Assembly: GCA_017403065.1 (NCBI GenBank)
Contig: JAFQOT010000006.1
Coordinates: 33,865-97,864 of the forward strand
Source of the DNA: Clostridia bacterium
Lineage (GTDB): Bacteria; Bacillota; Clostridia; Oscillospirales; Acutalibacteraceae
DNA: 64,000 nt
Direction: 5' to 3'
Part shown: positions 20,510 through 59,729 of the stretch, one piece after another
Layout of the letters: each line of letters opens with the position of its first letter
Position numbering within the stretch: position 1 is the first letter of the stretch
Translations under genes and position numbers: made by a program
Notes under the pieces: generated by a model
Seen by the model: only the letters and a program-made list of their open reading frames with translations
What the model was told of the DNA's origin: nothing
The model's database searches: none

Positions 20510-20521
20510 TTTAAACTCTCC

Positions 20522-22003: not shown

Positions 22004-22006
22004 TTG

Positions 22007-23470: not shown

Positions 23471-23506
23471 AATTAGCCTCTCCTTGCTGAATTTATATAA
23501 AGATTT

Positions 23507-31485: not shown

Positions 31486-32814
31486 TTATTTATATTCTTC
31501 TATAGTTTTATCAATAATAGCATTAGCTTCCTGAATGCAGTTATCTAATGTGCCACTTACGGTTGCGATGTTAGTGGTGATCTGGCTTGAAGAGCCCTTA
31601 ACAACAGGGTTCATAAAGACCTGAGGCATTCCGTTTGGATACAATACTCTGTATATAGTACCTTCACACATATAAATAGAAAAATCACCATTCTTAAGCT
31701 GGTCTTTCGCTAATTTAGCAGAAGATTCGTTCAGGTAAACCTCATCCATATCGTAGTTGTTATCATCTAAGAAGTAACGAATGAAGTAACCTGCTGCGAG
31801 TGGGTTTTTAGAGCCTTCGCAAAGACCGTATGTGCGTGAAGCAATATAAGTGCCAGGATAATTTTCATCAGAAGCATTTCTCTTAGGTAATTTTGTATAT
31901 GCTACAGTTGCTGGGTCAACGTTTTTATAATATCCATTCTTTCTTAAAGCAAACGCAGAGGTTAAACACATTACGCCTGTACCATCAGGGATGCCACTTG
32001 TAGTCATACCTGATGGTGTATAAGCAAGATTGCTTTCGCTTATTTCAAGTATGTACTTATAGCAGTCAAACAAGTTTGTGTTGGTAGAAATGTTTTCATA
32101 TTTACCTGTTTCGGTATTGAAATTGATCCACTGAGCGCCATAAGCATTTAAGAATTGTTGGACGTCGAGAGAGGTGTTGTTATTATCACCGTCAGCAGGA
32201 GCGTTTCTAATATCCTTCATACACTGCTTGAAGGTTTCCCAAGTCCAGTTGTTTTCTTTTATGTACTCATCAGGTGTTTTAATTCCGTAAGTTTCAAAAA
32301 ATTCAACGTTATAGGTAATAATAGAGGCAGCTAATCTATTGTATGAATTAGCACCGTTTACTGCGTAGGTCTTGCCACCAAAGGTGTAGTATGGTATTGC
32401 ATTTTGATCCCAGAATTTATCCTTGGGGTCTATTCCTGCATTTTCAATAGGTTGAAGAACCTGTAAAAGTGTGGCAATAGTACCGTTTTCAACTATAACA
32501 TCAGGAGCATCGTCAGCTGCTATCTGAGCCTGTAGCTTAGCAACGTACTGAGCTTCTGGATAAATTTCCATTTCAACGTCAATACCTGTTAAGTCAATAA
32601 AGCCCTCGATAACGCTTGCGCACTCATCTGCTGTATGGTCACGCCAAGAAGCAAATCTAACGGTTGAGCCAACTAAATCAACAGGAATATTGTCAAAATA
32701 CGCTGTATCAACGTTTGCTTGCTTGCCGCCCTTGTCTTTGTCGTCACCACAACCGGTGAAACAACAAGCGATCATGCAAACCGCCATAAGAATTGCTGAA
32801 ATTCTCTTAATCAT
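31486..32814 (-). CDS. CUT1-family sugar ABC transporter substrate-binding lipoprotein
   Basis: Lipobox CFTGC. ORF reaches 32829 (GTG), but the ATG at 32814 follows GGAGG by 8 nt. SBP family-1 architecture. Confidence 0.85.
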   Translation of the reverse strand: MIKRISAILMAVCMIACCFTGCGDDKDKGGKQANVDTAYFDNIPVDLVGSTVRFASWRDHTADECASVIEGFIDLTGIDVEMEIYPEAQYVAKLQAQIAADDAPDVIVENGTIATLLQVLQPIENAGIDPKDKFWDQNAIPYYTFGGKTYAVNGANSYNRLAASIITYNVEFFETYGIKTPDEYIKENNWTWETFKQCMKDIRNAPADGDNNNTSLDVQQFLNAYGAQWINFNTETGKYENISTNTNLFDCYKYILEISESNLAYTPSGMTTSGIPDGTGVMCLTSAFALRKNGYYKNVDPATVAYTKLPKRNASDENYPGTYIASRTYGLCEGSKNPLAAGYFIRYFLDDNNYDMDEVYLNESSAKLAKDQLKNGDFSIYMCEGTIYRVLYPNGMPQVFMNPVVKGSSSQITTNIATVSGTLDNCIQEANAIIDKTIEEYK

Positions 32815-32840
32815 AGGTTTTTCCTCCACTTTAATATTTT

Positions 32841-33347
32841 TTATTTATTAGCCGAAAAATCCCAAACTATTTTGTAATCATCGGCATATAGGGTTTCAAT
32901 CGAGTTTTTGGGGAATATAGCCAGGTCTAATCTGCCTTCGCCTTCGTCTCTCATACCTGTATTAAGGTCGTGAAATACGCTATAACGTCCCTCATTATTC
33001 TCGTGATCGTTTTTGAAATTATAATACATAGCGTAAACCATAGAGTCTGTTTTCTCTACATAGCCTACAACGTATTTTGCAAAATCATCAGTAGAATTGA
33101 TAACATAGTCATCTTCCTTGCGGCAAACAACTACATATTCTACATTTTCTTTTAATTCTAACTTCTTTTCTTCTGAAGAAGTTGCCTCAGAACTGTCTGT
33201 AGCAGTACCGTCCGAAGAATCTGTTACATCTGAAGAAGCCACAGTATCCTTCGAAGGTGTTTTTTCACCTGCATCGGTTTTGCCTTCGCCGCATGCAACT
33301 AAAGATGCTGCCATTAAAACTGCAAGAAATAAAGCTAATTTTTTCAC
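32841..33347 (-). CDS. small lipoprotein of unknown function (S/T/D-rich linker plus ~100-aa domain)
   Basis: Lipobox LVAC. The GTG at 33347 is preceded by AAAGGAG (the ORF track extends to 33389). Confidence 0.6.
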   Translation of the reverse strand: MKKLALFLAVLMAASLVACGEGKTDAGEKTPSKDTVASSDVTDSSDGTATDSSEATSSEEKKLELKENVEYVVVCRKEDDYVINSTDDFAKYVVGYVEKTDSMVYAMYYNFKNDHENNEGRYSVFHDLNTGMRDEGEGRLDLAIFPKNSIETLYADDYKIVWDFSANK

Positions 33348-33416
33348 ATTTATACTCCTTTCTTGAAAATTCGTTTGTGCAAAAGTCATAAAAAGACCTC
33401 ACATCGCACTATAATT

Positions 33417-34400
33417 TTATCCTGTAATGCCTACTTTGTCAATACTTTGTACGAATTTTTTTTGTACAATCATATACATAATTAAAACAGGTAAAATAAA
33501 GATTAAGCAAGCCGCCATAACTATCATCGCTTTTTCTGTTATGGCATGTTTTCTGAATAAAACACTAATAGATTCTTCTATAGTGTTCAGTTTAACTGCC
33601 ATTGGGTAATTCGATGATGTATACATAACGGCGAGATAATAATCGTTCCAGTGCCAGATTACAGAGAATACAGAAACTGTGAAGAGTATAACGCCTGAGG
33701 ATGGTATTGCAATACTTAGGAATGTTCTGAAAGGACCTGCGCCGTCGATCCACGCAGCTTCTTCAAGCTCTTTCGGAAGTCCCTTAAAGAACTGTATATA
33801 CATAAATATTATGATACCTGCGCGTAAGCCTACACCAAAAAGACTTGGTAAATAGAAAGGCCATACAGAATTTAACAAATTGATTTTTATAGGCTCACCT
33901 ATAATATTTTCAATAAGTCCCACTATTCCTAAAATATCAAAATCTGAGAAATTGATGGTCATAGGAATAATAATCATTTGTGAAGGGATGAATATAAGCA
34001 GCATAAGGAATACATTTAAAATACCCTTAAGCTTAAAGTCGAAACGTGCCATACCGTAAGCCGCCAATGTGCAAGAGAAAATTTCAATAACAGCGGCTAC
34101 TATTTCGTATACTAATGTGCTTATAAACGAATTAGAAAAATCTAACGCCTCGAAAGCCTGAGTAAAGCCTTCTAATGAAAACACCTTAGGAATCCACACA
34201 ATGCTTGGGTCTAAGAATGCGTCAGGTGTTTTTAAAGCTGTTGTTATCATAAATACCATAGGGTAAATAATAACGTAGCTTATTGAAATAAGCAGAACAT
34301 ATCGGTAAAGCGATACCAAAAATGAGCCTGCCTTTTGCATCATTTTTTTCTGGTAAAGAGCCTTACTCTCAGGGGTAGAAAACTGTTTCATTTTTAACAT
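33417..34400 (-). CDS. carbohydrate ABC transporter permease (MalG-like)
   Basis: 6 TM, EAA-type loop LEEAAWIDGAGPFRTFLSIAIP. Confidence 0.9.
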   Translation of the reverse strand: MLKMKQFSTPESKALYQKKMMQKAGSFLVSLYRYVLLISISYVIIYPMVFMITTALKTPDAFLDPSIVWIPKVFSLEGFTQAFEALDFSNSFISTLVYEIVAAVIEIFSCTLAAYGMARFDFKLKGILNVFLMLLIFIPSQMIIIPMTINFSDFDILGIVGLIENIIGEPIKINLLNSVWPFYLPSLFGVGLRAGIIIFMYIQFFKGLPKELEEAAWIDGAGPFRTFLSIAIPSSGVILFTVSVFSVIWHWNDYYLAVMYTSSNYPMAVKLNTIEESISVLFRKHAITEKAMIVMAACLIFILPVLIMYMIVQKKFVQSIDKVGITG

Positions 34401-34416
34401 AAAATCTACCTCCTTT

Positions 34417-35313
34417 TTATTGCCAACGGCTAGCGCAGAAACGGTTGTACAACCAAAGCACTAAACCTGTTGCGGCGCCAACGCATAAGAAATAGGTCCA
34501 AAGCATAGCAGAAGCTCTGCCATATAACTGAGAATCCATCAAAGCGTAAGCCTGCGTCATAACAACATCTGTCTGAGATGTCATAGCGTCAACTACTGTA
34601 AATACCAAAACTAAAACTATAACGTTTGAAAGCATTGGAAGTGTGATAAACCAGAATTCCTCCCATTTGGTTGCGCCCTCAACCTTGCCTACCTCGTAAA
34701 GAAGCTCAGGAATTGTTTGCATACCCGAAATAAAGAGAACTATCTGTATACCGCAGCTCCAGATGATATTCATAATACCGCTAAGTGTAGTGCTTATGAA
34801 ATCACCGATTTGCTGAGGAAGACCTGTGAAAGCGATAATCTCACTTACATCTATCATACCGGAGGATACCGATTCATCTGACTGTATAGAAGAAACGTCA
34901 CCTGCTTGATATTGGAAAAGCATTGCAAGAACCGAGCCCGCAGCCATAATAGCAGGTAAGAAGTACACTACTCTGAAGAACAAACGTCCTTTAAACTGGC
35001 CACTAAGCATAATTCCGATAATCATACTTAATATCAAAATTACAGGACAGGTATATAAAAGTGTGAATAAGCCTTGGCCTAAGTTATTTGCAAATTCAGG
35101 GTCTTTTTGGAATATGTAATTGATATTGTCAAGACCCACCCACTTCATCATTGTTCCGCCTACTACAACTCTAACGTCTGAGAAGATGTATATAAGCGAT
35201 TGGAAGATAGGATACACGAAGAAAAGCAGTAAGCCTATAATCCAAGGGGTTACAAACATTAAACCGTATCTGCTTTTAAGCGTTTCTATTCCTCTGTGCT
35301 TTTTTAGTTTCAT
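34417..35313 (-). CDS. sugar ABC transporter permease (MalF-like)
   Basis: 6 TM, EAA-type loop YEVGKVEGATKWEEFWFITLP. Confidence 0.88.
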   Translation of the reverse strand: MKLKKHRGIETLKSRYGLMFVTPWIIGLLLFFVYPIFQSLIYIFSDVRVVVGGTMMKWVGLDNINYIFQKDPEFANNLGQGLFTLLYTCPVILILSMIIGIMLSGQFKGRLFFRVVYFLPAIMAAGSVLAMLFQYQAGDVSSIQSDESVSSGMIDVSEIIAFTGLPQQIGDFISTTLSGIMNIIWSCGIQIVLFISGMQTIPELLYEVGKVEGATKWEEFWFITLPMLSNVIVLVLVFTVVDAMTSQTDVVMTQAYALMDSQLYGRASAMLWTYFLCVGAATGLVLWLYNRFCASRWQ

Positions 35314-37562
35314 GATTGTCCCCCCGATACATTGTTAATTACCAAATAATCCTTGGCTTCTACTACACCGTCGGCTGTTTGATAAGAAGTGTCGCCATAG
35401 TTTACGTAAATTACGCTGCCATTATCAAAGGTTGTTTTGCGAACGTTGTTTTCAACTATATCGTAGCCTTTGATTTTAGCGCCACAAACCGATTTGTAGC
35501 AATTTGAATATTCCTCAACCATTTTCGCTACAGTTTCTTTATTGCTTTCATATTCAGAAGCAAAGAAGGCAGTGTAGCTGTCATGCAGACCCTCGTTATA
35601 TTCGTCTGATAATGTGAAGAGCAAGCCAAGACCTGTCTGAACTGTATTAAGGAATGCCTTTTCAGGCTCATTAGAAAGGTTGATTGCGGTACCAGTCATA
35701 GGTACGTAGCCCTTGAAAACGATTTGATAGAAAGGAATGTCGCAGTCAAACAAATCGCTTTGAGATGATGTTGTAGGCGAATCATAAATTATGTCAGACA
35801 TAGTGGCAGCATAATCGAATGCGCCGTGTGACATGACCTTTTTGCCACTCTTTTTAACATTAGCAAGCTGCTGTGAAACCTGTGTTGCAACAGAGCCCTT
35901 ACTGTAATATTTTTGTTCTGAGTAATCAGAATACGCTGTGCTTGTTAAAGAATCTAAGGAAACTCCTGAAATTTCTAACTTATCAGCAAATTTAATAGCC
36001 TTTTGTATAGCTTCAGGTATTAAGTCACGTCCCAGAAGCTTATATGTTGGTAAATTTTTATCAACACCCTTGTTACCGATGTTGTAGGTTTTAATAGTGG
36101 TGGCTCTGTTGTTGGTTGCAACAGCAGAATCAAACATATTTGAGAAACCGTCGCCTGATTTTGCAAAGGCTGTAACATCCATATCAACATAAAGTGAAAA
36201 GTCTTGCTCCTCGCACCAAGCTGAAAGCTCTTTTACACCCTTTTTACCGCCCATACCTGAATGAATGGTATATCCACCGGCAATTTTACCCACATTTACA
36301 CCGCTTTCACCGAAGCCTACAAGGCAAACATTAGGGTTGGTATTTGTTGTTTTCTTAATATCCTTTAAAATGTCAACAACATCATCGGTTGTTGTTGAAG
36401 CAAACATAGATTTATAAGGAACACCTAAAAATGATTTTTGGGTTTCAGCTCCGCCCAAAATATTAAGGTTGAGAATATTTTCTTCTGCGTTTGCCTTCAT
36501 ACCGTAAGTATCCACAAGATAATCACGGTAAATATCTGCCATTCCGGTAATGTTTGCGTTACCGTTATTTAACGGATAGTAGGATACCGAAATTTTTTCA
36601 GAAATAAATTCATCAGAGTAAAGCTTTGACTCTTTAGTAATCATTCCCTTTGCGGTTACGTTTTGGTATCCGCGAATGTCAAATCTTGGATAAACGGTTG
36701 TATATCCAATATTTTTATTAGCGTAGTTTACCTGAAGTGTAGCAGCGCCTGCGCCACTGGTAATAATTCCGAACACACCTCTTGAGCCGCTTGCATCAGC
36801 CGAGCCGAAAACAGGCAAAGCAGTATTCTTTTCAATAGAATATTGAATTAAATCCTGTGGATAAATCTGTAAGTCGTTTCCGTAAACGCTTGTTGAGTAT
36901 GAAAGAGAAGCGTCTAAATTATCCTTAGCGTATATAAGCGCGCCGCTTCCTGACGGAACAAATAAATATCCGTTCTGGGCATTTTCAATACCACAGAAAT
37001 ATGGAGCAAGGTTAATGCTTATAAGAGTGTTTTTGCCCTCTTGAATTTCATTGGGGTCGATAGAAATCTCAATATGGTCGTCAGCAAGGATATAGCTTAC
37101 AGGGATTACAAATTCTTCCCTTTCAAAGCAGTATATAAGCTTAAAACCGTTATCGATTTTTTCTATCTTATAGTCCTTTTTCCTTAATGATGAGGTATAA
37201 CTGTTTGCAGTAGCTATCTCTATGCTGCCTTCCTTCATATAGTTAACCATCATTCCGGATTCAAGCATTACTGCATTGTTGATTACATTGCCTTTTTCGT
37301 CATACTTAGGAACCAATGCGCTTGAAGGAATATTAGTCCATACCGAGCCGTCATTTTTATCTGTCATAAGGATTCGGTAATTCTCAGAATCCCACGAAAG
37401 AGCATAGCGTGAGTTTTCAGCCGCTGTAAAGCTATCTACTGCTTTGGCGCTGAAAGCTTTGAACGCTTTAGGAGCTATAGGCTCCTCTCCGCCGCATGCC
37501 GTAAAGGTTGCGGTCATAACCAAGCACATCGCTAGAACAAAAATACGTTTTAAATTTTTCAT
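35310..37562 (-). CDS. 750-aa lipoprotein of unknown function (resembles proteins I recall labelled DUF5696; unverified)
   Basis: Lipobox TFTAC, GGAGG SD, start/stop coupling (ATGA) to the downstream permease; no motif I can assign. Confidence 0.8.
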   Translation of the reverse strand: MKNLKRIFVLAMCLVMTATFTACGGEEPIAPKAFKAFSAKAVDSFTAAENSRYALSWDSENYRILMTDKNDGSVWTNIPSSALVPKYDEKGNVINNAVMLESGMMVNYMKEGSIEIATANSYTSSLRKKDYKIEKIDNGFKLIYCFEREEFVIPVSYILADDHIEISIDPNEIQEGKNTLISINLAPYFCGIENAQNGYLFVPSGSGALIYAKDNLDASLSYSTSVYGNDLQIYPQDLIQYSIEKNTALPVFGSADASGSRGVFGIITSGAGAATLQVNYANKNIGYTTVYPRFDIRGYQNVTAKGMITKESKLYSDEFISEKISVSYYPLNNGNANITGMADIYRDYLVDTYGMKANAEENILNLNILGGAETQKSFLGVPYKSMFASTTTDDVVDILKDIKKTTNTNPNVCLVGFGESGVNVGKIAGGYTIHSGMGGKKGVKELSAWCEEQDFSLYVDMDVTAFAKSGDGFSNMFDSAVATNNRATTIKTYNIGNKGVDKNLPTYKLLGRDLIPEAIQKAIKFADKLEISGVSLDSLTSTAYSDYSEQKYYSKGSVATQVSQQLANVKKSGKKVMSHGAFDYAATMSDIIYDSPTTSSQSDLFDCDIPFYQIVFKGYVPMTGTAINLSNEPEKAFLNTVQTGLGLLFTLSDEYNEGLHDSYTAFFASEYESNKETVAKMVEEYSNCYKSVCGAKIKGYDIVENNVRKTTFDNGSVIYVNYGDTSYQTADGVVEAKDYLVINNVSGGQS

Positions 37563-37572
37563 GTTTTACCTC

Positions 37573-39696
37573 CTAACGAAATGCTACTTCTAAGAATATG
37601 GTGCCAACAAATGTGAAAATCTGCTGAACCATTATTATTGTTACTGCAATAAGGAATACAACGAGAAGTAATCCAAATATAGAAAGAATTGAAGTTCCAA
37701 CGAATTTACCGAATGTGTAATCGTGAATTTTCATCAAACCTATTGCCAAAAGCAACACTGTATATATAACAGCAACTGTGCCGATAATAGAAAGGAATGA
37801 TGCTTCGCTTTCTAACAGGAAGTTGGACAACACTGTTGTAACCACATTGGAAATTATTAAAACTATTAACGAGTAACAGGTAACAATGTAAATTTCTTTA
37901 ATTTTACCTAAACCGTTAAATAATGTACATACAGCCCAGTTAACAACTGTCCATATAAGTACCGCACCCAAGGAGCGAATTAAAACTACTATAGAGTTAA
38001 AGGCTGTAGCATCAGTTGAAGAAAATGTAAATCCGTAAAAATCGTTTTTGAGAATTTCAGAAATATAATAAACTACCAAAATTATTGTAGCGTAAATTAC
38101 AGAGCCTTTTTTCTTCTCTCTGATTTCGCCAAAATTGTTTGCAGGGTGAATAGGTACAGTAAGAGCAAGTCTTAAATCGTAATTTTTAATAAATACAATA
38201 CCCTTTTTCTTCTTGTAAACCAGTCCTGCCCAAAGCGCTGCCACCAACAAAACGCAGCCTACAAATATAAATCCGAAGTTTTTGCTTAACAGGTCACTTC
38301 TTAATTGCTCGTAAGCTCTTCCGTAGGTATCTCTGTCTAAGCCCTTCTTTGAATATTCAATAGCGGCTTCATAGTCAGCTCTGTTAAATGCAGCTCTTCC
38401 CAAGCCGATATACGCAAGCTGGCAGTTTTTATCCTGTGCGAGAATATTTTCCCAAAGGTCCTCTGCCTTATCATAATCACCGTCGTTAGAATACTGCTGA
38501 GCAGTTCTTAAAAGCTGACCGTATTCGGTAAACTTGAAAATGGTAACGCTTTGCTTTAACTGGTCGCAGACATAAAGCCTGTCGTTATAATAATCAATGC
38601 CGCAAGGCTTTTTAAATGTTCCCGCCTGAGTGCCGTTACCAACACCTCCACCGAAAGCAGAAACGAAATTGCAGCTGTTGTCATACATATATATATTGCC
38701 TAAGGAACTGTCGTAGCAATACAAGAAGCCTTGGTTATCTACGCATACACTTGAAATGTCAGGTTTAACGGTTCTTCCTAAAGAGTTATGGGTGATTTGA
38801 TCCTCGCCGAAAGGCTTTTCGCCTTTTAGTATATTTGTACCTATTGGGCTTAAGCGGCGAATAGCATTCACTCTGTTGTTGTTATTAGTAGAGCCGGTTG
38901 CAGTATAAACGAAGCCTTCGTTATCTACATATATATCTACCAACTGATACGGCAAGCTTTTTACACTATAGTCATACTTTTCGCTTGTCATTGTTAAGTT
39001 TTCCCACAAATTAGCAAGAGCTGACAAGAAGGAAGCTTCCGCTTCGTTAGCGCCGTAGAAGCCTATAAACTTACCGTCGGGATTATATAAAATCGCACCG
39101 TAATAGCAACCGTCACTTAAAACATAGGTATAACCGCTTTGGTCAACCGTTACTCGTATGGGACGGAAGGTAAAATCATCAGGCATAAGTGATGAATCCG
39201 GAACGGTGATAATATCACTTACGTTACCCTGCGTATCCGACACGATAATTCTTGCATTGTCGGTATCGCATATATACATTACGTTTTCGGGAGAAACAAA
39301 TATTCCTCTCGGTTTTTTAAGCTTTAACACTTCACCGTTATTGTTAAAAGAAGTAATCTGATGAGAAAGCTTATATTCTGAACTAATTACTGTTACCTTT
39401 GCCTCGGTTGTATCTACTAAATAAATAGAACCGTCAGGACCCACGCTCATATCAGCTATCTCGGTAAAGCCTGTAAGACCAAGTGTTCCCGCATCAACAA
39501 CTGTATCTACGCTGAATGCTGCTTTAGTGGGCACAGGCTTGTTTACATAAGAATCTTGCCAATATGTATACGAGTTATAGGCCGTATCTGATTCGTATCC
39601 CGCAGCAGATACAACCAATGTAGCAGACAAAATAAATGTAATCAGAGCAAAGATAAAACATCTTGTAAATAAGTTTTTAACTGAATGTTTTTTCAT
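37573..39696 (-). CDS. fusion membrane protein: signal peptide, six-bladed NHL-repeat propeller, TPR segment, Yip1-like 5-TM domain
   Basis: Six NHL-like blades (DGSIYLVDT, VMYICDTDNARIIV, GYTYVLSDG, GFVYTATGS, GFLYCYDSSLGNIYMYD, RLYVCDQLKQSVTIF), a TPR-like helix pair, then TM helices. Confidence 0.8.
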   Translation of the reverse strand: MKKHSVKNLFTRCFIFALITFILSATLVVSAAGYESDTAYNSYTYWQDSYVNKPVPTKAAFSVDTVVDAGTLGLTGFTEIADMSVGPDGSIYLVDTTEAKVTVISSEYKLSHQITSFNNNGEVLKLKKPRGIFVSPENVMYICDTDNARIIVSDTQGNVSDIITVPDSSLMPDDFTFRPIRVTVDQSGYTYVLSDGCYYGAILYNPDGKFIGFYGANEAEASFLSALANLWENLTMTSEKYDYSVKSLPYQLVDIYVDNEGFVYTATGSTNNNNRVNAIRRLSPIGTNILKGEKPFGEDQITHNSLGRTVKPDISSVCVDNQGFLYCYDSSLGNIYMYDNSCNFVSAFGGGVGNGTQAGTFKKPCGIDYYNDRLYVCDQLKQSVTIFKFTEYGQLLRTAQQYSNDGDYDKAEDLWENILAQDKNCQLAYIGLGRAAFNRADYEAAIEYSKKGLDRDTYGRAYEQLRSDLLSKNFGFIFVGCVLLVAALWAGLVYKKKKGIVFIKNYDLRLALTVPIHPANNFGEIREKKKGSVIYATIILVVYYISEILKNDFYGFTFSSTDATAFNSIVVLIRSLGAVLIWTVVNWAVCTLFNGLGKIKEIYIVTCYSLIVLIISNVVTTVLSNFLLESEASFLSIIGTVAVIYTVLLLAIGLMKIHDYTFGKFVGTSILSIFGLLLVVFLIAVTIIMVQQIFTFVGTIFLEVAFR

Positions 39697-39713
39697 TTAA
39701 TTTTCGCCTCCTA

Positions 39714-40619
39714 CTATTCCTTGATACCGGCGCTGCTCATAGATTCCATAATGTTGCTCTGGGAAATCATATAAACTAAGATAGGCGGTATCATCATAAT
39801 TACCGTAACCGCCATGGCGCTACCTGAACGGGCGATACCGCCGGCAGTAATTTGTTGCATGATGGTAGGTAATGTTTTTAAGCTTTCATTAAATATTGTA
39901 CCTTGTGGTGTAATAGCCCACGCTTCGCGGAATCCAAAAAGAATAAGGGTAAGAAGACAAGGCTTAACTATAGGCACAGCTATCTGGAAGAAAATTCTGT
40001 ACGCTCCTGCTCCGTCAACCCTTGCAGCTTCAAGAAGCGCGTTTGGTATAGCACCCTCCATATACTGCTTCATAAGGAATACACCCATTGTAGAAGCAAC
40101 GTGAGGAATAATCATAACCAAATATGTATCAATAAGACCAAACCAAGAATAAATCAAGTATCTTGGAATTGACAGTGTGTACGCATTAAACAAAAGCGCG
40201 AACTGTACTATAAGGAAGAAGGTCTTTCTACCTTTTATTTTTGACTTGCATAGAGCAAAAGCAGCCAATGTTGCCAAAAATACATATAAAAGAGTAGAGG
40301 TTATTGTAACAAACAAGCTGTTAAATACATATCTGGAAAGAGGTATTCTCAGGTTTGATAAAAGTCCCGGTAAAGCGGCGTAGTTAGCTACTGTAGGACG
40401 TATTACAAAGAAACGCGGCGGGAATACCAAAAGCTCATCCAAAGGCTTAAAAGATGTAACAATACAGTAAACCAAAGGAAGTACCGAAAAGGCGCCAAAT
40501 GCAACTAAAAACAAAACATAAAAGAAGTTGCCCACTTTTGATCTTGTATAGCGTTTATATTGACTTTCTTTTGACACCTTTAATTTGGGAGTCTTTGTCT
40601 TAACATTATTTTTTGTCAT
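39714..40619 (-). CDS. carbohydrate ABC transporter permease (MalG-like)
   Basis: EAA loop LLEAARVDGAGAYRIFFQIAVP; 6 TM. Confidence 0.9.
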   Translation of the reverse strand: MTKNNVKTKTPKLKVSKESQYKRYTRSKVGNFFYVLFLVAFGAFSVLPLVYCIVTSFKPLDELLVFPPRFFVIRPTVANYAALPGLLSNLRIPLSRYVFNSLFVTITSTLLYVFLATLAAFALCKSKIKGRKTFFLIVQFALLFNAYTLSIPRYLIYSWFGLIDTYLVMIIPHVASTMGVFLMKQYMEGAIPNALLEAARVDGAGAYRIFFQIAVPIVKPCLLTLILFGFREAWAITPQGTIFNESLKTLPTIMQQITAGGIARSGSAMAVTVIMMIPPILVYMISQSNIMESMSSAGIKE

Positions 40620-40632
40620 TATTAAATCCTCC

Positions 40633-41535
40633 CTATCTTCCTACAGAATCAATGGCCTTTTTGATTACAGCACGTGTTACGGCCATCATTACGAACAATA
40701 CAACTGCCAATGCAGATGCATATCCCATTTCATACTTAACAGTACCAACGTCATGCATATAAGAAACGATGGTATCAACTGCATAGTTAACGCTGGGGTA
40801 GCCTGCAAGCTCAATAGCGATAGCGCTAACCGAGAAGGCAGAGGCTATCTGCATAACAGCGCTGAACAACAGCATGTGCTGCATAGCAGGCAATGTAATG
40901 TACCAAAGCTCTTGCCAGCGGTTTCTGATACCGTCAATAGCGCCCGCCTCATACATTTCACCATTTACGTTCTGCAAACCTGAAATGTTAGAAAGGAAAG
41001 ATACACCCATACTCTGCCACAACTGGACAGCTATAATAATCGGCATAACATAGGTAGCATTTTTAAGCCAGGAAATCGGCTCGGTTAAGATGCCTATAGA
41101 CATTAAAAGGCTGTTTACATAACCGTAGCTATCTGACGAGAAGGCTGTCTGCCATACGAAGTAGGCGTTACCTACAAGGGCAGGACAATAGAAAAGGAAT
41201 GATAAAATAGTACGCACCATTGGACTGAATTCGTTAATAAACCAAGCTAAAACGAAGGCAAGCAAAAAGCCTAAAGGTCCTGTGATAATTGCGAATACTA
41301 CTGTATTTTTAACAGTAATAGAAAATATTTCATCATTTAATATCATACGGGCGTAGTTATCCACACCGTTAAATTTAGGGGCGGAAACCATATCAAAATC
41401 CGTAAAACTAAAAATTATGGAGGTGATAACAGGTAATACCGTTAATATAACGAATACTATAAAAAACGGTAACACCATTGTGTAATACGGAATCCATTCC
41501 TGAAGAATGTTCCGTGTTTTTGTAGTCATTTTCAT
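40633..41535 (-). CDS. sugar ABC transporter permease (MalF-like)
   Basis: EAA loop YEAGAIDGIRNRWQELWYITLP; 6 TM. Confidence 0.9.
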   Translation of the reverse strand: MKMTTKTRNILQEWIPYYTMVLPFFIVFVILTVLPVITSIIFSFTDFDMVSAPKFNGVDNYARMILNDEIFSITVKNTVVFAIITGPLGFLLAFVLAWFINEFSPMVRTILSFLFYCPALVGNAYFVWQTAFSSDSYGYVNSLLMSIGILTEPISWLKNATYVMPIIIAVQLWQSMGVSFLSNISGLQNVNGEMYEAGAIDGIRNRWQELWYITLPAMQHMLLFSAVMQIASAFSVSAIAIELAGYPSVNYAVDTIVSYMHDVGTVKYEMGYASALAVVLFVMMAVTRAVIKKAIDSVGR

Positions 41536-41552
41536 TAAATCTTCTCCTCCAT

Positions 41553-44441
41553 TTAATCAGCGTACTGTGCTATCTTACGTTGGATTTCGCTGTCGGCAAT
41601 CTTATCCCATTTGGTTAATGTATCCTTAGGGTTAGCGTCGTTATTATAAACATCCCAGAATGCCTGGTCAACAGATCTTGAGAGGTAATAGCTTCCCGGA
41701 ACCTCAGGAACCTCCTTAATCCAGGTTCTTTGCTCAAGAAGTGTAGCAAGATGCTCTTTATCCCAAGACATACGGCTGAAGGCTTCAACGTTAGCGGTTG
41801 TAACACGCGAAATAGCGCCTAAAATTGATTCTATATTGTTATTATATCTCAACTGTATGTCAGCGCTGGTCCACCACTTAAGGAATTCCCAAGCAGCTTC
41901 CTTGTTTTCGGAATGTTTAAGAATTCCACAGCCTGTACCCGAGCCTGAAACGGTATGATTAACCTTTCCGTTTTCATCCTTAACACCGGGCACCAATGCG
42001 ATAGACCATTTTCCATCAATTTCAGGGGCAGCGTCCGAAATAGTAGTATATATATTGTAGGGCTCTATACCCAAAGGTGTTGTACCTGCTCTGAATCGGT
42101 TATAGAAGCTTTGTACTGTTGGAATACGGTATTTTGTATACAAATCGGTCCAGAAGGTAAACGCCTTGAAGCTTGTTGGGCTTGTAAGCATAGCCTGAGT
42201 TTGTTTTTCATCATACAGGCTACCGCCGTGCTGCTGTAAAATACCGGCAAAGAGGTTAAGTCCGCCCACACCTGTATTTACAGTAGTTGCCGCGCTTATT
42301 TGTGTATAAGGTAAGCCTACCTGTAAATTATTGTGCTGAAGTGATGTTGTAACATCGATAAAATCTTCCCAGGTTTCAGGAACCTTTAATCCAAAGTCGG
42401 CTAAAATATCCTCACGGTAATACATTATATAGAATGCTTGTGTATCAGGAAGCGCATAAGCGCCGTTTTTATACTGATAAGGCATACCTGCAGAATCGCC
42501 AAAGCGCTTCATAATTTCTTCATAGTCATCAAAGTTCTTAAGGTCATATAATGCGCCGCGCATTGCAAGGTTTACAGGCTCGGTTCTCGCCATATGTAAC
42601 GAAAGGTCAGGGGCAATACCTGCCAGCATACCGTTAATAATGCTTGCATTTGTAAGCTCAAGATTAACGTTAATTCCTGTTTGAGGAGTAAAGGACTCCT
42701 GAATCAAGGAGTTCAATACCGTAGCCTGATCACGACCCCAGTTTACCCAGATTTTAATGGTTTCGCCTTCACCGGAAACGTGGGAGATACGGCTGTATTC
42801 ATCTCCGAAAGAAACAAGCAAACGCTTTGTTCCAAATGCAAGACCTTCAAAAAAGCCTGCTTCTCTGCTATCAAATTCCACATCTGCGCCTGTAAGCTGA
42901 ATGCAGTCAAGAGATAAAGGCATTGACTTCATTTCGCTTAACCAAGTACCTAATGTGGTATACTTTGTGAAATAATCCGCAACATAAATATGCGCTTTAT
43001 ATGAATCTTCGCACATAGAATTCAAAATACGAGACATATCGTTAATAGCAGCTATGTACTGACTGCTTCGTTTTCCCGACAAAGCCTTCATACCAGCGGC
43101 AAGGTCGTTGAGAGTGTCTCTGTATGATTCCAAATTTTCAACAAAATTAGGAATTTGCTTATGTAAATCATAGTCGCGGTTTTTATCAGGAGATGAGCCT
43201 GTAATTGTTACTATATCTAAGTAAAAATTACCTATTTTTTCTACCATACCCTCAAGTATGTCATAGGCGAAATCGGTTTCACCCATAGTACCTGCTAAGG
43301 ATATTGTATGCTTGCCCTCGTCCAGATAAATGAGGCAGTCCTCTTCACCGTTATCCAAAACAGTAAACGCCCAGTCAGTATTGTATTCAAACTTTACATT
43401 TTTAGCTTCTTCAAAAGGAGTTTTACCGTCAACTTTTAACCAACGGTAAGAAATACCGTCAATAATCTGGTCCTGCTTGTAATTAAAGCCTATTCTGTAA
43501 AGACCAGCTTTTTCTACGTTGAATTCCCATTGGATTTCTTCCCGTGGAGTTTTCCAGTTTGAAGCGCCAATGTAGTTCATAACAGACTTAGAAACTTCAC
43601 GCGGGCGGATATTAGCAGAAGAGTTGTCGCATTTAGGAACTAAGGATTTAACAGATTTCTTTATGGCATCCTCAGCCTCAATGGTAATAACCTTTCCGTC
43701 ATAATTCTTATAACCCGCAGCCTTATAATCCTTTTTAACATCAGAGTATGACTTAATTTCCTTAGGAGCAACAAGAGATATTTCAGCAATCGCAATATAA
43801 CCTTGGTCTTTTTCTATAGTAATAGTATGCTGACCTGCTGTGAAAGCAAACTGTAAATCCTCAGAAATGCCGCCTGCAGGGTCATACAAAACGGTTGTAT
43901 TGTATTCTCTTACCTGTACCTGCTCAGGAGCATATTCATTTCCTACATCATCCTTGTTTTTACCGTCAGCATCTTTCCACATACAAGTAAAATCAAGCTT
44001 TTCGGCAACAGGGAAAGGACTTACTCCATCTATTTTAAGAGAGAAATCGACATTAGCACCCGATTCATCAATTACGAAATATGTAACCTGAATTTCATAT
44101 AATCCCGCATTGGCAACCATAACAGGAATATTGATGGCATCCTTATCAGATAACCAGACTAAAGCGTTTTTACCCGCATAATCCTCGTATTTAACCGAAG
44201 GGTTTCCTTTTGCTACGGTAAAGGCCGAGAGGTCAAACTTAACATCCTCTTTAGCGGCGCTTAAACCACTTGCCGATTTATACAAATCATAGTCTGACTG
44301 TATAACCAACACATTTGAATCTGTTTCTTTTGCTTCTTCGGCGCTAACGTTGAAAGCAGCACCTACAGGAAGGAAAACCATTCCCACAAGCATAAAAAGC
44401 ATTAAAAGAAACGAAGTGCTTTGTTTAAATAATTTTGTCAT
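41553..44441 (-). CDS. 962-aa extracellular solute-binding protein with two N-terminal CBM6/35-like modules
   Basis: Signal peptide ...FNVSAEE; two beta-sandwich-like modules (AGLYEIQVTY..., IEAEDA...AGLYRIGFNY...GKHTISL); the C-terminal ~420 aa look SBP family-1-like. Confidence 0.8.
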   Translation of the reverse strand: MTKLFKQSTSFLLMLFMLVGMVFLPVGAAFNVSAEEAKETDSNVLVIQSDYDLYKSASGLSAAKEDVKFDLSAFTVAKGNPSVKYEDYAGKNALVWLSDKDAINIPVMVANAGLYEIQVTYFVIDESGANVDFSLKIDGVSPFPVAEKLDFTCMWKDADGKNKDDVGNEYAPEQVQVREYNTTVLYDPAGGISEDLQFAFTAGQHTITIEKDQGYIAIAEISLVAPKEIKSYSDVKKDYKAAGYKNYDGKVITIEAEDAIKKSVKSLVPKCDNSSANIRPREVSKSVMNYIGASNWKTPREEIQWEFNVEKAGLYRIGFNYKQDQIIDGISYRWLKVDGKTPFEEAKNVKFEYNTDWAFTVLDNGEEDCLIYLDEGKHTISLAGTMGETDFAYDILEGMVEKIGNFYLDIVTITGSSPDKNRDYDLHKQIPNFVENLESYRDTLNDLAAGMKALSGKRSSQYIAAINDMSRILNSMCEDSYKAHIYVADYFTKYTTLGTWLSEMKSMPLSLDCIQLTGADVEFDSREAGFFEGLAFGTKRLLVSFGDEYSRISHVSGEGETIKIWVNWGRDQATVLNSLIQESFTPQTGINVNLELTNASIINGMLAGIAPDLSLHMARTEPVNLAMRGALYDLKNFDDYEEIMKRFGDSAGMPYQYKNGAYALPDTQAFYIMYYREDILADFGLKVPETWEDFIDVTTSLQHNNLQVGLPYTQISAATTVNTGVGGLNLFAGILQQHGGSLYDEKQTQAMLTSPTSFKAFTFWTDLYTKYRIPTVQSFYNRFRAGTTPLGIEPYNIYTTISDAAPEIDGKWSIALVPGVKDENGKVNHTVSGSGTGCGILKHSENKEAAWEFLKWWTSADIQLRYNNNIESILGAISRVTTANVEAFSRMSWDKEHLATLLEQRTWIKEVPEVPGSYYLSRSVDQAFWDVYNNDANPKDTLTKWDKIADSEIQRKIAQYAD

Positions 44442-44816: not shown

Positions 44817-45620
44817 ATGGCTATAATGCATAAAAACGACTTTTTTTCTTCAAGCAAAGTTGCTAACGAACGCATACATACACCCCTTCATTTTCATACT
44901 GATTATGAGCTTTGCTATGTACAAGCAGGTGAATTCAGGTTCGTTTTGAATGAAAAAATACTTGATTTAACCCCCGGCGATGCAGTAATTGTTCCAAAAA
45001 ACGCTATACATAATACAGACAGCGGTGATTGCCTTTATAATTATCTTATAACCCTGTCATTCGACAATCACCACCTGTTTTACGAAACCTCAACTATGCT
45101 TTCTGAACTATGTGCCGAAAATATTGTGCATATTCCCACAGACAAAAAAGGTGAGGTCGAGGAGCTGCTTTATAAAATTGAGGATGAATATATAAAAAAG
45201 AGAGACAGCCACCAAACCCTTATTAAATTTTATATTGGCGAGCTTTTAACTATGCTATATCGGTATAGATTATCTCGGACTGAAAATCCCTCTCATTCTA
45301 TGTCTATTATCCAAAAGATTGTCGACTACATAACCTTAAACTTCGACCGTGATATTACCCTTAATACCCTTTGTAAAAAATACAACATAAGCAGCAGCTA
45401 TCTTTCACATAAATTCAAAAACACTATGGGCTGCAGTATCAGCGAATATATAACCTCTGTCCGCATTGCAAATGCCGAAAAGCTGCTTAAAAGCGGAAAA
45501 ATTTCAATTACAGAGGTTTCGGCAAAATGCGGCTTTAATGACAGCAATTATTTCGCCCGCGTCTTTAAACAGCATAAAGGCATAACCCCGTACAAATTTT
45601 TAAAGAATAATATGGAATAA
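44817..45620 (+). CDS. AraC-family transcriptional regulator (cupin + HTH), divergent from the glycan locus
   Basis: C-terminal AraC HTH (SSSYLSHKFKNTMGCSISEYITSVRIANAEKLL ... GFNDSNYFARVFK). Confidence 0.88.
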   Translation: MAIMHKNDFFSSSKVANERIHTPLHFHTDYELCYVQAGEFRFVLNEKILDLTPGDAVIVPKNAIHNTDSGDCLYNYLITLSFDNHHLFYETSTMLSELCAENIVHIPTDKKGEVEELLYKIEDEYIKKRDSHQTLIKFYIGELLTMLYRYRLSRTENPSHSMSIIQKIVDYITLNFDRDITLNTLCKKYNISSSYLSHKFKNTMGCSISEYITSVRIANAEKLLKSGKISITEVSAKCGFNDSNYFARVFKQHKGITPYKFLKNNME

Positions 45621-45713: not shown

Positions 45714-46505
45714 CTAATCCACGTTTACACCCTTATTAAACAATTTAATGTTTATTAAAAATCCAACAATATTTATTACTATATAACTTATAATGCTGTA
45801 AACAACAGCAAATTTAATAACCTCTAAATTCATCGCCTTAGTTGTAACAAATATATTCATAAAATCGCTATTAAAAATTGCAGGTATAAACATTAAAATC
45901 ACAATCGTAATTTGGCTTAGCATATAGATTATAAAGCCAAATAAAACCGACATTCCCAATTTGCCGTTGTTAAAGCGGTGGCCTAAAATAATACCTGTAA
46001 AGCCACACTGTAAAATATTTATAAACTCAAGATATAACACAAAAACAACTAAAACCAAACCCGTCAGTAAGGATATATTAAAGGTATTCAAAATTGGAGA
46101 TATCATAGCTTTTAGGGCATCCGCATTTTCCTTGCTGTAATAGATTACAAAAAGACCCAAAATTAAAACAATTAAGCTAACAAAAGCGGTTATAACGGCT
46201 GTCAGCATTTTTGAGCTATAGATACAATGCTTTTTCACAGGTAAGGTATGGGTAAGATAGGATTCATCTCCATAAACGCTTTGACGAAACTTAACCCAAA
46301 GGCGCAATATGTTATTCGCAAAAGCGCTGAAAAGCATAGAAAAGGCAGCGCCTCTGCATATTTCACCTACTATTTTCATGAACAGGGAATTATCGATATT
46401 TAAAAACAGTCTTGTTAAAACTGCAAAAAACAGACCGAGAATATAAAAAACACTTAAAAATTTCAAAAACTGTTTTAAATCATATTTTAAAAGCCTACCT
46501 AACAT
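45714..46505 (-). CDS. ABC-2-type transporter membrane protein (function unknown)
   Basis: 6-7 TM hydrophobic protein overlapping the upstream ATPase gene. Confidence 0.7.
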   Translation of the reverse strand: MLGRLLKYDLKQFLKFLSVFYILGLFFAVLTRLFLNIDNSLFMKIVGEICRGAAFSMLFSAFANNILRLWVKFRQSVYGDESYLTHTLPVKKHCIYSSKMLTAVITAFVSLIVLILGLFVIYYSKENADALKAMISPILNTFNISLLTGLVLVVFVLYLEFINILQCGFTGIILGHRFNNGKLGMSVLFGFIIYMLSQITIVILMFIPAIFNSDFMNIFVTTKAMNLEVIKFAVVYSIISYIVINIVGFLINIKLFNKGVNVD

Positions 46506-47197
46506 CTGAACATCCTCCTGAAAATTTCATCCACAGAACCGCCTTGTTCTGTACGTAGCTTGTCACACTCAGAATGAAGAATAATTTTACCGTCGTTTAT
46601 AAAAATAACATCATCTAATATACGTTCTATATCGTTTATCAGGTGGGTAGAAATAATAACGCTTGCCCCCTCGTTAAAGTTAGAAAGTATAGTGTCGAGA
46701 ATATATTCTCTCGTAGCAGGGTCGACACCCCCAAGTGGCTCATCAAGTATATAAAGGTCGGCTTTTCGACTCATAACTAAAACCAACTGCACCTTTTCTT
46801 GCATACCCTTGCTCATCTTGGCAAGCTTTTGATTAACATCAAGACCCAATTCTTCTAATAGCTTATATGCCTTTTGGCTATCAAAATTATCATAAAATTC
46901 AGCAAAATATTTTATAACCTGTGCAACCTTCATCGATTTGTCAAGGTAGGTGCGTTCAGGTAAATAAGCAATAATTTTTTTAGATTCCACGCTTGGCGAT
47001 TTGCCGTTAATCAATACTTCTCCTGATGTGGGGGTGAGCAAATCGTTTATAAGCTTTATTAGAGTTGATTTGCCCGTTCCGTTTTTACCAAGTAAGCCAA
47101 CAATCTTGCCACGAGGTATGGTCAGGTTTATATTTTCCAAAACCTTTTTAGCGCCAAAACTTTTGTTTAAATTTTTAAGTTCTAATATGGTATTCAT
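46499..47197 (-). CDS. ABC transporter ATP-binding protein
   Basis: Walker A GKNGTGKST, signature MSKGMQ, Walker B LYILDEP. Confidence 0.92.
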   Translation of the reverse strand: MNTILELKNLNKSFGAKKVLENINLTIPRGKIVGLLGKNGTGKSTLIKLINDLLTPTSGEVLINGKSPSVESKKIIAYLPERTYLDKSMKVAQVIKYFAEFYDNFDSQKAYKLLEELGLDVNQKLAKMSKGMQEKVQLVLVMSRKADLYILDEPLGGVDPATREYILDTILSNFNEGASVIISTHLINDIERILDDVIFINDGKIILHSECDKLRTEQGGSVDEIFRRMFRC

Positions 47198-47559
47198 TTG
47201 TTACCTCCCAGTTGTTCGATTTGTTTGGATATTTCTCCAAGAGAATACCCTATGTCATACATTCTTTTTAAGTAAGTAAGGGTTAATTCCTCAGCATATT
47301 TTTGCTTATAAAAATTTATCAAAGAAGTATCGTGGGTTATAAATTTACCGTTGGTGCGCTCGGTAAAAACAAGTCCCGATTCCTCTAATTCAACAAGCGC
47401 TTTTTGCATAGTGTTAGGATTAACCTTAGTTTCATTGGCAAAATCCCTAACCGACGGTAAACGTTCTCCAGGCTTAAATTTGCCCGCTACAATGTCGGTT
47501 TTGATTTGTTCCACAATTTGAATGTATATGGGTATGTTATTATTAAAGTCAAATTTCAT
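47194..47559 (-). CDS. GntR-family (YtrA-subfamily) transcriptional regulator
   Basis: Short 121-aa GntR wHTH (LPSVRDFANETKVNPNTMQKAL); first gene of the GntR-ATPase-permease operon. Confidence 0.88.
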   Translation of the reverse strand: MKFDFNNNIPIYIQIVEQIKTDIVAGKFKPGERLPSVRDFANETKVNPNTMQKALVELEESGLVFTERTNGKFITHDTSLINFYKQKYAEELTLTYLKRMYDIGYSLGEISKQIEQLGGNK

Positions 47560-59679: not shown

Positions 59680-59729
59680 TATCACCCTTTTTTGCTAATT
59701 TCAAAACGCAAAATAAAATTTACTCGCTT

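Follow-up and report, generated by a model that had tools for sequence, protein, structure and literature searches.

What does a protein built from an NHL propeller, a TPR pair and a Yip1 membrane domain do between the permeases of a sugar importer? The question is raised by a gene at 37573..39696 (-) of a 64,000-nucleotide stretch of contig JAFQOT010000006.1, from a Clostridia bacterium of the Acutalibacteraceae; the whole stretch is called the window here. A first-pass annotation, made from the letters of the window, had proposed that this protein could be a scaffold, a sensor or an assembly factor within a sugar-importer operon. The sugar-importer setting stood, whereas the view of a single operon gave way to that of a seven-gene module, with the gene at its centre, that recurs in hundreds of genomes. 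This module is an ATP-binding cassette (ABC) sugar-uptake locus with two uncharacterised obligatory components, the NHL-TPR-Yip1 protein and a DUF5696 lipoprotein. In the reading that we favour, and to which we give a probability of roughly one half, the seven genes encode a glycan-uptake machine of gut Oscillospirales in which the NHL-TPR-Yip1 protein acts as the central adaptor.

Domain architecture and topology

The open reading frame (ORF) is open over 707 amino acids (aa) and begins with an ATG that is preceded by AGGAGG. Its product begins with a cleavable signal peptide, which is followed by a six-bladed NHL propeller and two TPR motifs; a transmembrane (TM) helix and a K/R-rich cytoplasmic loop then lead to a five-TM Yip1 domain. 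Topology was predicted from hydropathy and charge distribution, which place the signal peptide at about residues 13-31, an ectodomain of about 440 residues at 32-474, the first TM helix at 475-493 and the cytoplasmic loop at 494-530, followed by five TM helices. These data support the signal peptide and the outward-facing propeller of the first-pass annotation. The signal peptide (residues 1-31; 39604..39696 (-)) is of type I and has no lipobox, its hydropathy peak at residues 13-31 being followed by VVSA/AG. The signal peptides of the relatives also have A-x-A-type ends, and a loose lipobox pattern was found in just 10 out of 85.

The extracellular propeller (residues 43-389; 38530..39570 (-)) scores 21.7 bits over the whole protein with the Pfam profile PF01436, a borderline result against the cut-off of 20, and no single repeat exceeds the cut-off alone. 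Other members of the family reach 26-57 bits. Searches with phmmer against solved NHL domains aligned the protein with Thin (E-value 7.6e-13), TRIM71 (1.3e-6) and PknD (3e-3). An AlphaFold2 model built on 63 homologues (pLDDT 85, pTM 0.72) shows a strand pattern of six four-stranded blades at residues 43-389, predicted to form a closed propeller, and in Foldseek comparisons this beta region superposes on the NHL propellers of TRIM71, Thin and TRIM2 (E-value 5e-16; TM-score 0.76-0.80 on the matched NHL structures). The phmmer matches, the scores of the relatives and the superposition together secure the NHL assignment. The six blade motifs originally read from the translation fall on the six modelled blades. 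A helical insert of low model confidence lies between blades 3 and 4, at residues 218-247.

The two TPR motifs form the segment between the propeller and the membrane (residues 391-452; 38341..38526 (-)). All Pfam TPR models remained below threshold, the best being TPR_16 (24.9 bits against 32.7), with TPR_19, TPR_2 and TPR_14 also below their cut-offs. Residues 400-457 nevertheless aligned with consensus-TPR structures in phmmer at E-values from 1e-16 to 2e-26, relatives pass the TPR_19 profile (26.8 bits against a cut-off of 25), and the model contains four helices at 391-404, 408-421, 426-438 and 442-452. A stalk helix then leads into the first TM helix (residues 455-493; 38218..38334 (-)); hydropathy reaches 2.52 at 475-493, and residues 455-498 form a single continuous helix in the model.

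The cytoplasmic loop (residues 494-530; 38107..38217 (-)) contains 10 K/R residues against 3 D/E and a conserved HP...F motif, in which P518 is invariant and H517 and F522 are conserved, as is K528 further along. The Yip1 domain follows (residues 531-707; 37576..38106 (-)). Its Pfam profile, PF04893, matches with 58.4 bits against a cut-off of 28.6, residues 515-682 aligning with positions 4-171 of the 173 in the profile, and scores of 47-61 bits were obtained for the relatives. Five hydrophobic segments are found at 531-688, after the K/R-rich loop, and the model has five long helices there, as predicted for the five-TM Yip1 core with its cytosolic N-terminal segment. The NHL, TPR and Yip1 assignments have therefore been borne out by the profile, phmmer and AlphaFold2 evidence, with PF01436 borderline and the Pfam TPR models below their cut-offs. 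According to the model, this is a bitopic-plus-polytopic membrane protein with the NHL propeller and the TPR motifs facing outward and Yip1 in the membrane.

No matches to SBP, BPD_transp_1 or ABC_tran profiles were retrieved in the 707-aa protein with Pfam or NCBIfam. By its domains, the protein is an extra component, outside the canonical ABC subunit classes of solute-binding protein (SBP), transmembrane domain and nucleotide-binding domain. NCBIfam offers no equivalog for it or for the DUF5696 lipoprotein, and it returned only partial ScyF-NHL similarities for the former, far below cut-off. As judged from these profiles, it is a Yip1 member at the level of the domain family and not of a functional class.

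Distribution, fused forms and split forms

A word-indexed search with the NHL-TPR-Yip1 protein retrieved 191 homologues. Among the matches listed (120 of the 191), all are about 700 aa long, with coverage of 92-100% and identity of 37-59%. Where the database gives a name, it is 'YIP1 family protein', from Clostridia or Acutalibacteraceae metagenome-assembled genomes (MAGs). A 99%-identical copy was found on independent contigs from three sequencing runs. In a scan of GTDB with one genome per species, 214 relatives were detected, and the best 80 of these were used for detailed analysis of the loci. Nearly all of the best 80 belong to Acutalibacteraceae, Ruminococcaceae or 'Eubacteriales' MAGs, and their gut hosts include humans (Hadza), cattle, goat, sheep, yak, deer, rabbit and chicken. 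Several genomes carry two or three copies of the cassette, for example at loci L008/L012/L020, L024/L033/L071 and L050/L057/L077.

When the Yip1 half was used by itself, an exhaustive HMMER search retrieved 1395 representative clusters at E<=1e-3, 928 of them at E<1e-10. The best 150 of the 1395 are mostly fused proteins of about 700 aa; some have insertions of 100-300 residues, and others consist of the Yip1 domain by itself, at about 210 aa. The longer relatives P0267 (1030 aa), P0289 (897 aa), P0378 (1000 aa), P0381 (912 aa) and P0345 (822 aa) carry either 100-300 extra residues, inserted in the propeller or behind it, or long coiled linkers ahead of Yip1. No Pfam match was found in the inserts of the long relatives, carbohydrate-binding families included.

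In Oscillospiraceae and Ruminococcus MAGs, two adjacent genes occupy the position of the fused gene in the cassette (L087:8242-10630, with the same coordinates in L088; L089:8453-10630; L086:368-997). The first, of 490-585 aa, encodes the signal peptide, the NHL propeller, the TPR pair, one C-terminal TM helix, which is the stalk/TM helix of the fused form serving as an anchor, and a basic tail. The second encodes a 209-aa Yip1 protein that starts with a conserved HPFxGF motif. The break point lies exactly within the cytoplasmic loop of the fused form, which makes this loop the point of fusion or fission. Since the split genes break in the loop and stay adjacent, the two halves are separable modules that are always kept together. 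As far as gene arrangement can tell, such retained pairing is a classic signature of physically cooperating proteins.

A seven-gene cassette of invariant order

ORFs were called in all loci and matched to the proteins of the window. Wherever the contig reaches, in 80 GTDB loci and in metagenome loci, the order of the cassette is invariant: giant SBP, permease A1, permease A2, NHL-TPR-Yip1 protein, DUF5696 lipoprotein, permease B1 and permease B2. This order holds despite identities of 36-43% between the relatives of the NHL-TPR-Yip1 protein and the copy in the window. The core extends over 33417-44441 (-) in the window and was also found at loci L001, L002 and L006-L091. In the window its genes belong to a tight co-directional run with gaps of 10-27 nt and one overlap of 4 nt, where the start of permease B1 overlaps the stop of the DUF5696 gene. 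The gene under study is indeed embedded between ABC permeases, with MalF/MalG-type pairs on both sides. A promoter and terminator scan of the region from 26 to 45 kb remained at background level (62 versus 55.5 expected; 16 versus 14.4) and does not resolve internal transcription units.

Permease A1 (40633..41535 (-)) is of the MalF/UgpA type, as recognised by Pfam BPD_transp_1 and the NCBIfam profiles GlcT/UgpA, and carries the coupling helix YEAGAIDG. Permease A2 (39714..40619 (-)) is of the MalG/UgpE type (NCBIfam UgpE/GlcU/MalG), with an EAARVDGAG motif. In the second pair, permease B1 (34417..35313 (-)) is a divergent MalF-type protein (Pfam, 26.7 bits; NCBIfam UgpA) with the coupling helix YEVGKVEGA, and permease B2 (33417..34400 (-)) is of the MalG type (Pfam, 48 bits; NCBIfam UgpE/MalG), with an EAAWIDGAG motif. 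A strict EAA pattern failed on A1 and B1, and the possibility that these two lack coupling helices was rejected, as both contain variants of the motif. Because all four permeases keep EAA-type helices for coupling to the nucleotide-binding domain, the cassette encodes two translocator cores. No ATPase, HlyD-type membrane-fusion protein or FtsX/MacB permease was found in the cassette with Pfam or NCBIfam. Firmicute CUT1 systems usually share an MsmX/MsmK-type ATPase that is encoded elsewhere in the genome.

The components differ in how well they are conserved. Mean identity to the window counterparts is 67% for permeases A1/A2, 48-50% for B1/B2, 46% for the giant SBP, 40% for the NHL-TPR-Yip1 protein, 35.5% for DUF5696 and 28% for a small SBP that accompanies some of the cassettes. 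Across all components, the pairwise distance matrices are closely correlated with one another (0.85-0.94), which indicates that cassettes are inherited and duplicated as units. All raw mirror-tree correlations lie in this range, and they were discarded as uninformative about partners.

The giant SBP and the DUF5696 lipoprotein

The first gene of the cassette encodes the giant SBP (41553..44441 (-); 962 aa in the window, about 920-1100 aa across loci). A type I signal peptide is followed by two CBM35-like modules and a sugar SBP domain. The latter was retrieved with Pfam SBP_bac_1/8 at residues 579-865, and the solved SBP closest to this C-terminal domain is Lin1841 (3.9e-14). The CBM35-like modules, of about 170 aa each, were detected as an internal repeat (E-value 8e-6) and through a weak CBM_35 match. 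No lipobox is present in the window copy, and a loose lipobox pattern was found in just 5 of 69 relatives, leaving about 64 without one. It is unusual for the SBP of a Gram-positive cell to lack an anchor; in a monoderm, a protein without a lipid anchor needs to be held at the membrane by other means.

The 750-aa protein encoded immediately downstream of the NHL-TPR-Yip1 gene (35310..37562 (-)) had already been recognised as a lipoprotein; its family and fold had been missed, and they change the functional picture. It matches the Pfam family DUF5696 (PF18952) with 462 bits. The window copy has the lipobox TAC|GG, and a lipobox was found in 72 of 79 relatives. In its AlphaFold2 model (pLDDT 91, pTM 0.91) a TIM barrel stands between an N-terminal and a C-terminal beta-sandwich. 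Foldseek aligned this model best with ZgGH129 (5opq; 1e-34) and NagBb of Bifidobacterium bifidum (5wzr; 2e-28), a GH129 alpha-N-acetylgalactosaminidase, followed by members of the glycoside hydrolase (GH) families GH101, GH36 and GH31. The DUF5696 profile also aligned with the ZgGH129 (DagB) sequence, with an E-value of 1e-4 in three collinear pieces. ZgGH129/DagB of Zobellia galactanivorans is a 'GH129-like' 3,6-anhydro-D-galactosidase (PMC5698469). DUF5696 proteins and GH129 enzymes have the three-domain architecture in common, with an identity of only about 12-14%.

Two aspartates of DUF5696 that lie near the ends of barrel strands, D462 and D546, show at least 90% conservation and are candidate catalytic residues. 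Judging from the modelled fold, DUF5696 may be an unrecognised glycoside-hydrolase family. It was not found as a listed GH family in the sources searched, and full-text literature searches retrieved no description of DUF5696 or PF18952, the only matches coming from GH129 terms searched alongside. Residue 642 is a Gln in the window copy, against a Glu in 56 of 59 homologues (motif ...ETG.GL...). It was considered as a mark of an inactive enzyme and rejected as such, since the residue lies in a predicted helix and not at a strand end.

Covariation and conservation

Partial correlations, calculated with a mirror-tree heuristic of the ContextMirror type on 67 cassettes (66 loci and the window), distinguished between components better than the raw values did; the bootstrap used with them leaves phylogenetic dependence in. 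Pairs known to interact served as controls (A1-A2, 0.40; B1-B2, 0.34; SBP C-terminal domain-A1, 0.26). The Yip1 half was linked to permease A1 with 0.31 (bootstrap 0.23-0.41) and to B1 and B2 with 0.17 each. For the ectodomain, the values were 0.26 with DUF5696 (0.15-0.37), 0.20 with B1 and 0.19 with the N-terminal modules of the SBP. The two halves of the same protein were unlinked (0.03; bootstrap mean 0.04). This pattern weakly suggests that the Yip1 half has its contacts within the membrane and the propeller half outside the cell.

The ectodomain residues that are conserved at 80% or more are glycines, aromatic residues (28 in all) and the Asp residues of the blades, together with only two Arg and one Lys. 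No His or Glu is conserved at this level. This composition, without a conserved His or Glu, suits binding and not conserved catalysis. Conservation within the family is highest in YVLSDGSYYGA (residues 191-205), which is followed by GFYGAN; both lie in blades 3-4, beside the helical insert. Since they are kept across cassettes whose flanking enzymes differ (GH16 in some, uronate genes and GH28 in others), the ligand of the ectodomain appears to be constant. Considering this conservation, a partner protein is a more likely ligand than a variable glycan.

A putative adaptor and its alternatives

How could these parts work together? In the mechanism that we propose, the Yip1 half would dock laterally on the transmembrane domains of the permeases, for which the Bacillus subtilis Yip1 protein YknW offers a precedent. 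The propeller/TPR half, carried just above the bilayer by the rigid stalk helix, would bind constant extracellular partners. Candidates are the GH129-like DUF5696 lipoprotein and the giant SBP, which would otherwise diffuse from the monoderm cell; the glycan chain is another possible ligand. Capture, trimming and import of the oligosaccharide would in this way be kept in one place, and the ATPase subunits would be supplied from elsewhere in the genome. We favour an adaptor because of the invariant synteny, the co-inheritance of whole cassettes, the fission and fusion of the halves, the anchoring statistics of the SBP, the partial correlations, the binding-type conservation, the precedent of YknW and the glycan context. 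This is close to the scaffold or retention device that had been among the initial suggestions, to which the unanchored giant SBP, the invariant order and the occurrence of the halves as separate adjacent genes have now given substance.

Several observations weigh against this assignment. The partner contacts are deduced indirectly, the structure models covering single chains, and the mirror-tree values come from a heuristic applied to about 67 related operons, with the phylogenetic dependence noted above. YknW acts alongside an exporter of the MacB type and a membrane-fusion protein, not alongside MalFG-type importers, which makes it a loose analogy. The NHL-TPR-Yip1 protein is less conserved (about 40%) than the A permeases (67%) and the giant SBP (46%), and this would also fit a substrate-facing role. 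Finally, the giant SBP could be retained by its own CBM-like modules on the cell wall, or by an uncleaved signal anchor.

A more ambitious version of the adaptor, which we put forward tentatively and think less probable than not, is that all seven core proteins assemble into a single supercomplex, the Gram-positive equivalent of the 'utilisome' of Bacteroidetes. Yip1 would bridge the two ABC translocators, the propeller and TPR motifs would dock the SBP and the GH129-like glycosidase, and the products trimmed from a captured polysaccharide end would feed both importers.

Alternatively, the propeller could itself be the working part and Yip1 a mere anchor, the propeller acting on the incoming polysaccharide either as a surface glycan-binding module, like the surface glycan-binding proteins (SGBPs) of Bacteroidetes, or as a lyase or lactonase of the NHL/SGL type. 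We consider this rather unlikely. It draws on a weak similarity to the SGL/gluconolactonase and ScyF NHL families, on the presence of virginiamycin B lyase among the Foldseek matches and on the position of the protein among the more variable members of the cassette. The segments YVLSDGSYYGA and GFYGAN, which the strand order of the model would place in surface loops, are aromatic-rich like many sugar-binding sites; however, they are the very segments kept across paralogous cassettes with differing enzymes, which points to a constant ligand. The large extra domains inserted in the propeller of some relatives (P0267 and P0289) could likewise speak for a substrate-facing role, but they have no carbohydrate-binding match in Pfam. 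The lack of a conserved His or Glu and the scarcity of conserved Arg and Lys, described above, speak against chemistry that depends on metals or on acid/base catalysis, as in known catalytic propellers. Moreover, a single TM helix would be enough for an anchor, yet the five-TM Yip1 domain is kept as an adjacent gene when the protein is split.

The NHL-TPR-Yip1 protein might instead be a transient assembly or quality-control factor for the permease pairs and for the positioning of the lipoprotein, sub-stoichiometric in the mature machine. YknW was described as modulating the assembly of YknXYZ and not as transporting (PMC4887032, PMC4338810). TPR motifs are typical of such factors, weak matches to the TPR regions of LapB and Slam being a faint hint in this direction, and the invariant position in the operon fits such a factor as well as it fits an adaptor. 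Nevertheless, the protein is present 1:1 in every paralogous cassette, up to three per genome, which is more typical of a dedicated subunit, and its divergence parallels that of its own cassette. We regard an assembly factor as improbable.

A sensor role is less plausible still. In that case a glycan outside the cell or a cue from the cell wall would be detected by the propeller, and the signal would cross the membrane to act either on transporter gating or on the AraC regulator that is often encoded next to the cassette. Both phmmer and Foldseek detected similarity to the sensor propeller of PknD from Mycobacterium tuberculosis. No cytoplasmic output domain is present, the cytoplasmic parts being limited to the 37-residue basic loop and short loops between helices, which leaves the glycan or cell-wall sensor of the first-pass annotation weak. 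In addition, the AraC regulators carry their own cupin ligand-binding domain, and they are encoded directly upstream in just 8 of 59 loci, whereas the NHL-TPR-Yip1 gene is always linked to the permeases.

Lastly, the concern that the long ORF is an artefact of mis-assembly or read-through joining an NHL gene to a Yip1 gene, to which the split versions of both halves in other lineages might lend some colour, can be dismissed in view of the 120 full-length homologues listed, the 99%-identical copies from three runs, the mostly fused top matches of the representative search and the continuous ORF with its conserved linker loop.

Genes surrounding the cassette

Downstream of the core, the window encodes a 182-aa lipoprotein, a 447-aa SBP and, after 166 nt, proteins of 1623 and 586 aa. 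The small lipoprotein (32841..33389 (-); lipobox LVAC|GE) has no assigned function; it was found in just two other loci and is not a conserved member of the cassette. The 447-aa protein (31486..32829 (-)) is a second, ordinary SBP, retrieved with Pfam SBP_bac_1/8 and carrying the lipobox FTGC. It is an optional member, detected in 31 related loci (about 40%), in 30 of which it is a lipoprotein. Its listed GTG start has no ribosome-binding site and itself contains GGAGG; judging from the sequence, translation probably begins five codons further on, at the ATG (MIKRIS...) ahead of the lipobox.

The region at 24688-31319 (-) encodes the 1623-aa secreted protein, with a weak match to the Listeria-Bacteroides repeat only, and the 586-aa lipoprotein. 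A sequence search of the PDB gave nothing usable for either protein, and no family match was found. Their relatives often adjoin the cassette in other genomes (e.g. L091), and they may be further cassette components or enzymes.

Genes at 19112-24529 (-) encode a carbohydrate esterase (AXE1/glucuronoyl-esterase-like), a reductase of the mannitol-dehydrogenase family, an altronate/galactarate dehydratase and a glucuronate isomerase, and a GH28 gene lies further from the cassette, at 58414-59685 (-). The uronate catabolism genes, the esterase and GH28 suggest a uronic-acid-containing (pectic) substrate for the cassette of the window. Uronate, esterase and GH28 genes travel with the cassette in none of the 81 related loci. 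The cassette of L090 is flanked by two GH16 genes and a gene for a dockerin protein. A constant uptake core with variable, substrate-specific accessories is, as far as gene content can tell, the pattern of a generic uptake module.

An AraC-family regulator is encoded divergently at 44817..45620 (+), with matches to Pfam HTH_18, HTH_AraC and the cupin ligand-binding domain AraC_binding, and it probably regulates the operon. AraC-like ORFs were detected in 28 of 81 related loci, in 8 of them directly upstream, and were also noted at L001 and L090. Just upstream of the AraC gene, at 45714-47559 (-), a small operon encodes a GntR regulator, an ABC ATPase and a 263-aa protein without a Pfam match. 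It looks like an ABC-2-type exporter unit and not like the source of the missing ATPase of the sugar importers.

Two further proteins of the window have unusual features. At 51285-53780 (-), an 831-aa fusion joins a xylose-isomerase-like TIM barrel (AP_endonuc_2) to an AMP-binding (adenylate-forming) enzyme, an unusual combination, and adjoins a protein with HMGL-like and LeuA-dimer domains and an amidohydrolase. At 62045-63241 (-), a 398-aa protein matches F420-0:gamma-glutamyl ligase (PF01996), has a long insertion and adjoins a GMP-synthase C-terminal/NAD-synthase-like protein. Outside the window, in an Acutalibacteraceae MAG, a 1251-aa TIR and NB-ARC protein, defence-like in its domains, is encoded directly after the cassette (L002:18390-22145 (-)).

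Significance

The Oscillospirales (Acutalibacteraceae, Ruminococcaceae and Oscillospiraceae) are abundant, mostly uncultured gut fibre degraders of humans and livestock, and their glycan uptake is far less understood than that of Bacteroidetes. The cassette was detected at no fewer than 214 places in GTDB species genomes, up to three per genome, flanked by differing carbohydrate-active enzymes (CAZymes), a pattern that typifies a general modular uptake engine. It would serve as a marker for predicting glycan-utilisation loci in Firmicute MAGs, and its mechanism would explain how an unanchored SBP is retained at the transporter in a monoderm cell. Once shown, the function of the NHL-TPR-Yip1 protein would extend the role of bacterial Yip1 proteins beyond YknW, and that of DUF5696 would probably add a glycoside-hydrolase family. 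If the supercomplex proved true, it would give the Yip1 domain its first defined molecular role in nutrient uptake and reveal a new class of ABC-importer accessory subunit.

Comparison with known systems

Bacterial Yip1 proteins had initially been taken to have no established function. This does not hold, as YknW is the Yip1-family fourth component of YknWXYZ in B. subtilis, where it modulates the assembly of the ABC transporter YknXYZ (PMC4887032, PMC4338810). Moreover, Yip1 genes recur in bacteriocin ABC-transporter clusters, BawG being a Yip1 protein from an ABC cluster (PMC10707071). YknW of B. subtilis and B. amyloliquefaciens and the NHL-TPR-Yip1 protein are both bacterial Yip1 polytopic membrane proteins encoded in ABC-transporter operons; the likeness is one of family and context. 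YknW is a stand-alone protein of about 200 aa without an ectodomain, whereas in the cassette Yip1 is fused or adjacent to an NHL-TPR ectodomain. The partners also differ: YknW acts with the MacB-type exporter YknYZ and the membrane-fusion protein YknX, protecting against a peptide toxin, while the neighbours of the NHL-TPR-Yip1 protein are two MalFG-type importers and SBPs. By analogy, the protein would work most like YknW, yet it departs from YknW in its partners.

Eukaryotic Yip1/YIPF proteins have in common with the NHL-TPR-Yip1 protein the PF04893 domain and the five-TM core with a cytosolic N-terminal segment. They act in vesicle traffic between the endoplasmic reticulum and the Golgi with Rab GTPases, and to our knowledge bacteria lack the Rab-type partners of eukaryotic Yip1. 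No Rab-like genes were found in the cassette, nor anything in it that points to vesicle traffic.

The propeller belongs with those of TRIM71/Lin41, Thin, TRIM2, Brat and PknD as a six-bladed NHL domain by sequence and predicted fold. These known propellers either act in the eukaryotic cytosol, where they bind RNA or proteins, or are sensors linked to kinases. In contrast, the one described here is extracellular and tethered to Yip1, has an insert between blades 3 and 4 and is found with no kinase or RING partner.

As in CUT1 importers of the MalEFG/MsmEFG type, the cassette contains MalF/MalG pairs with EAA helices and SBP_bac_1/8 domains, and no ATPase gene is found in the operon. It differs from them in having two permease pairs, an unanchored SBP of about 960 aa with two CBM-like modules and, between the pairs, the obligatory NHL-TPR-Yip1 protein and GH129-like lipoprotein. 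We know of no described CUT1 system with such extras. Literature searches over 8 million full texts retrieved no description of the NHL and Yip1 architecture or of the cassette, in agreement with the initial proposal that the protein is not a described transporter component.

The closest parallel in logic is found in the polysaccharide utilisation loci of Bacteroidetes and their SusCD 'utilisomes'. Its proteins are not homologous to those of the cassette, SusC, SusD and the SGBPs included, and the cassette relies on ABC importers in the membrane of a monoderm where the Bacteroidetes systems use a TonB-dependent outer-membrane barrel; the resemblance is an analogy only. Within that analogy, the two kinds of locus follow the same plan, in which a multi-copy uptake core is combined with surface capture, a glycosidase-like lipoprotein, variable CAZymes and a regulator.

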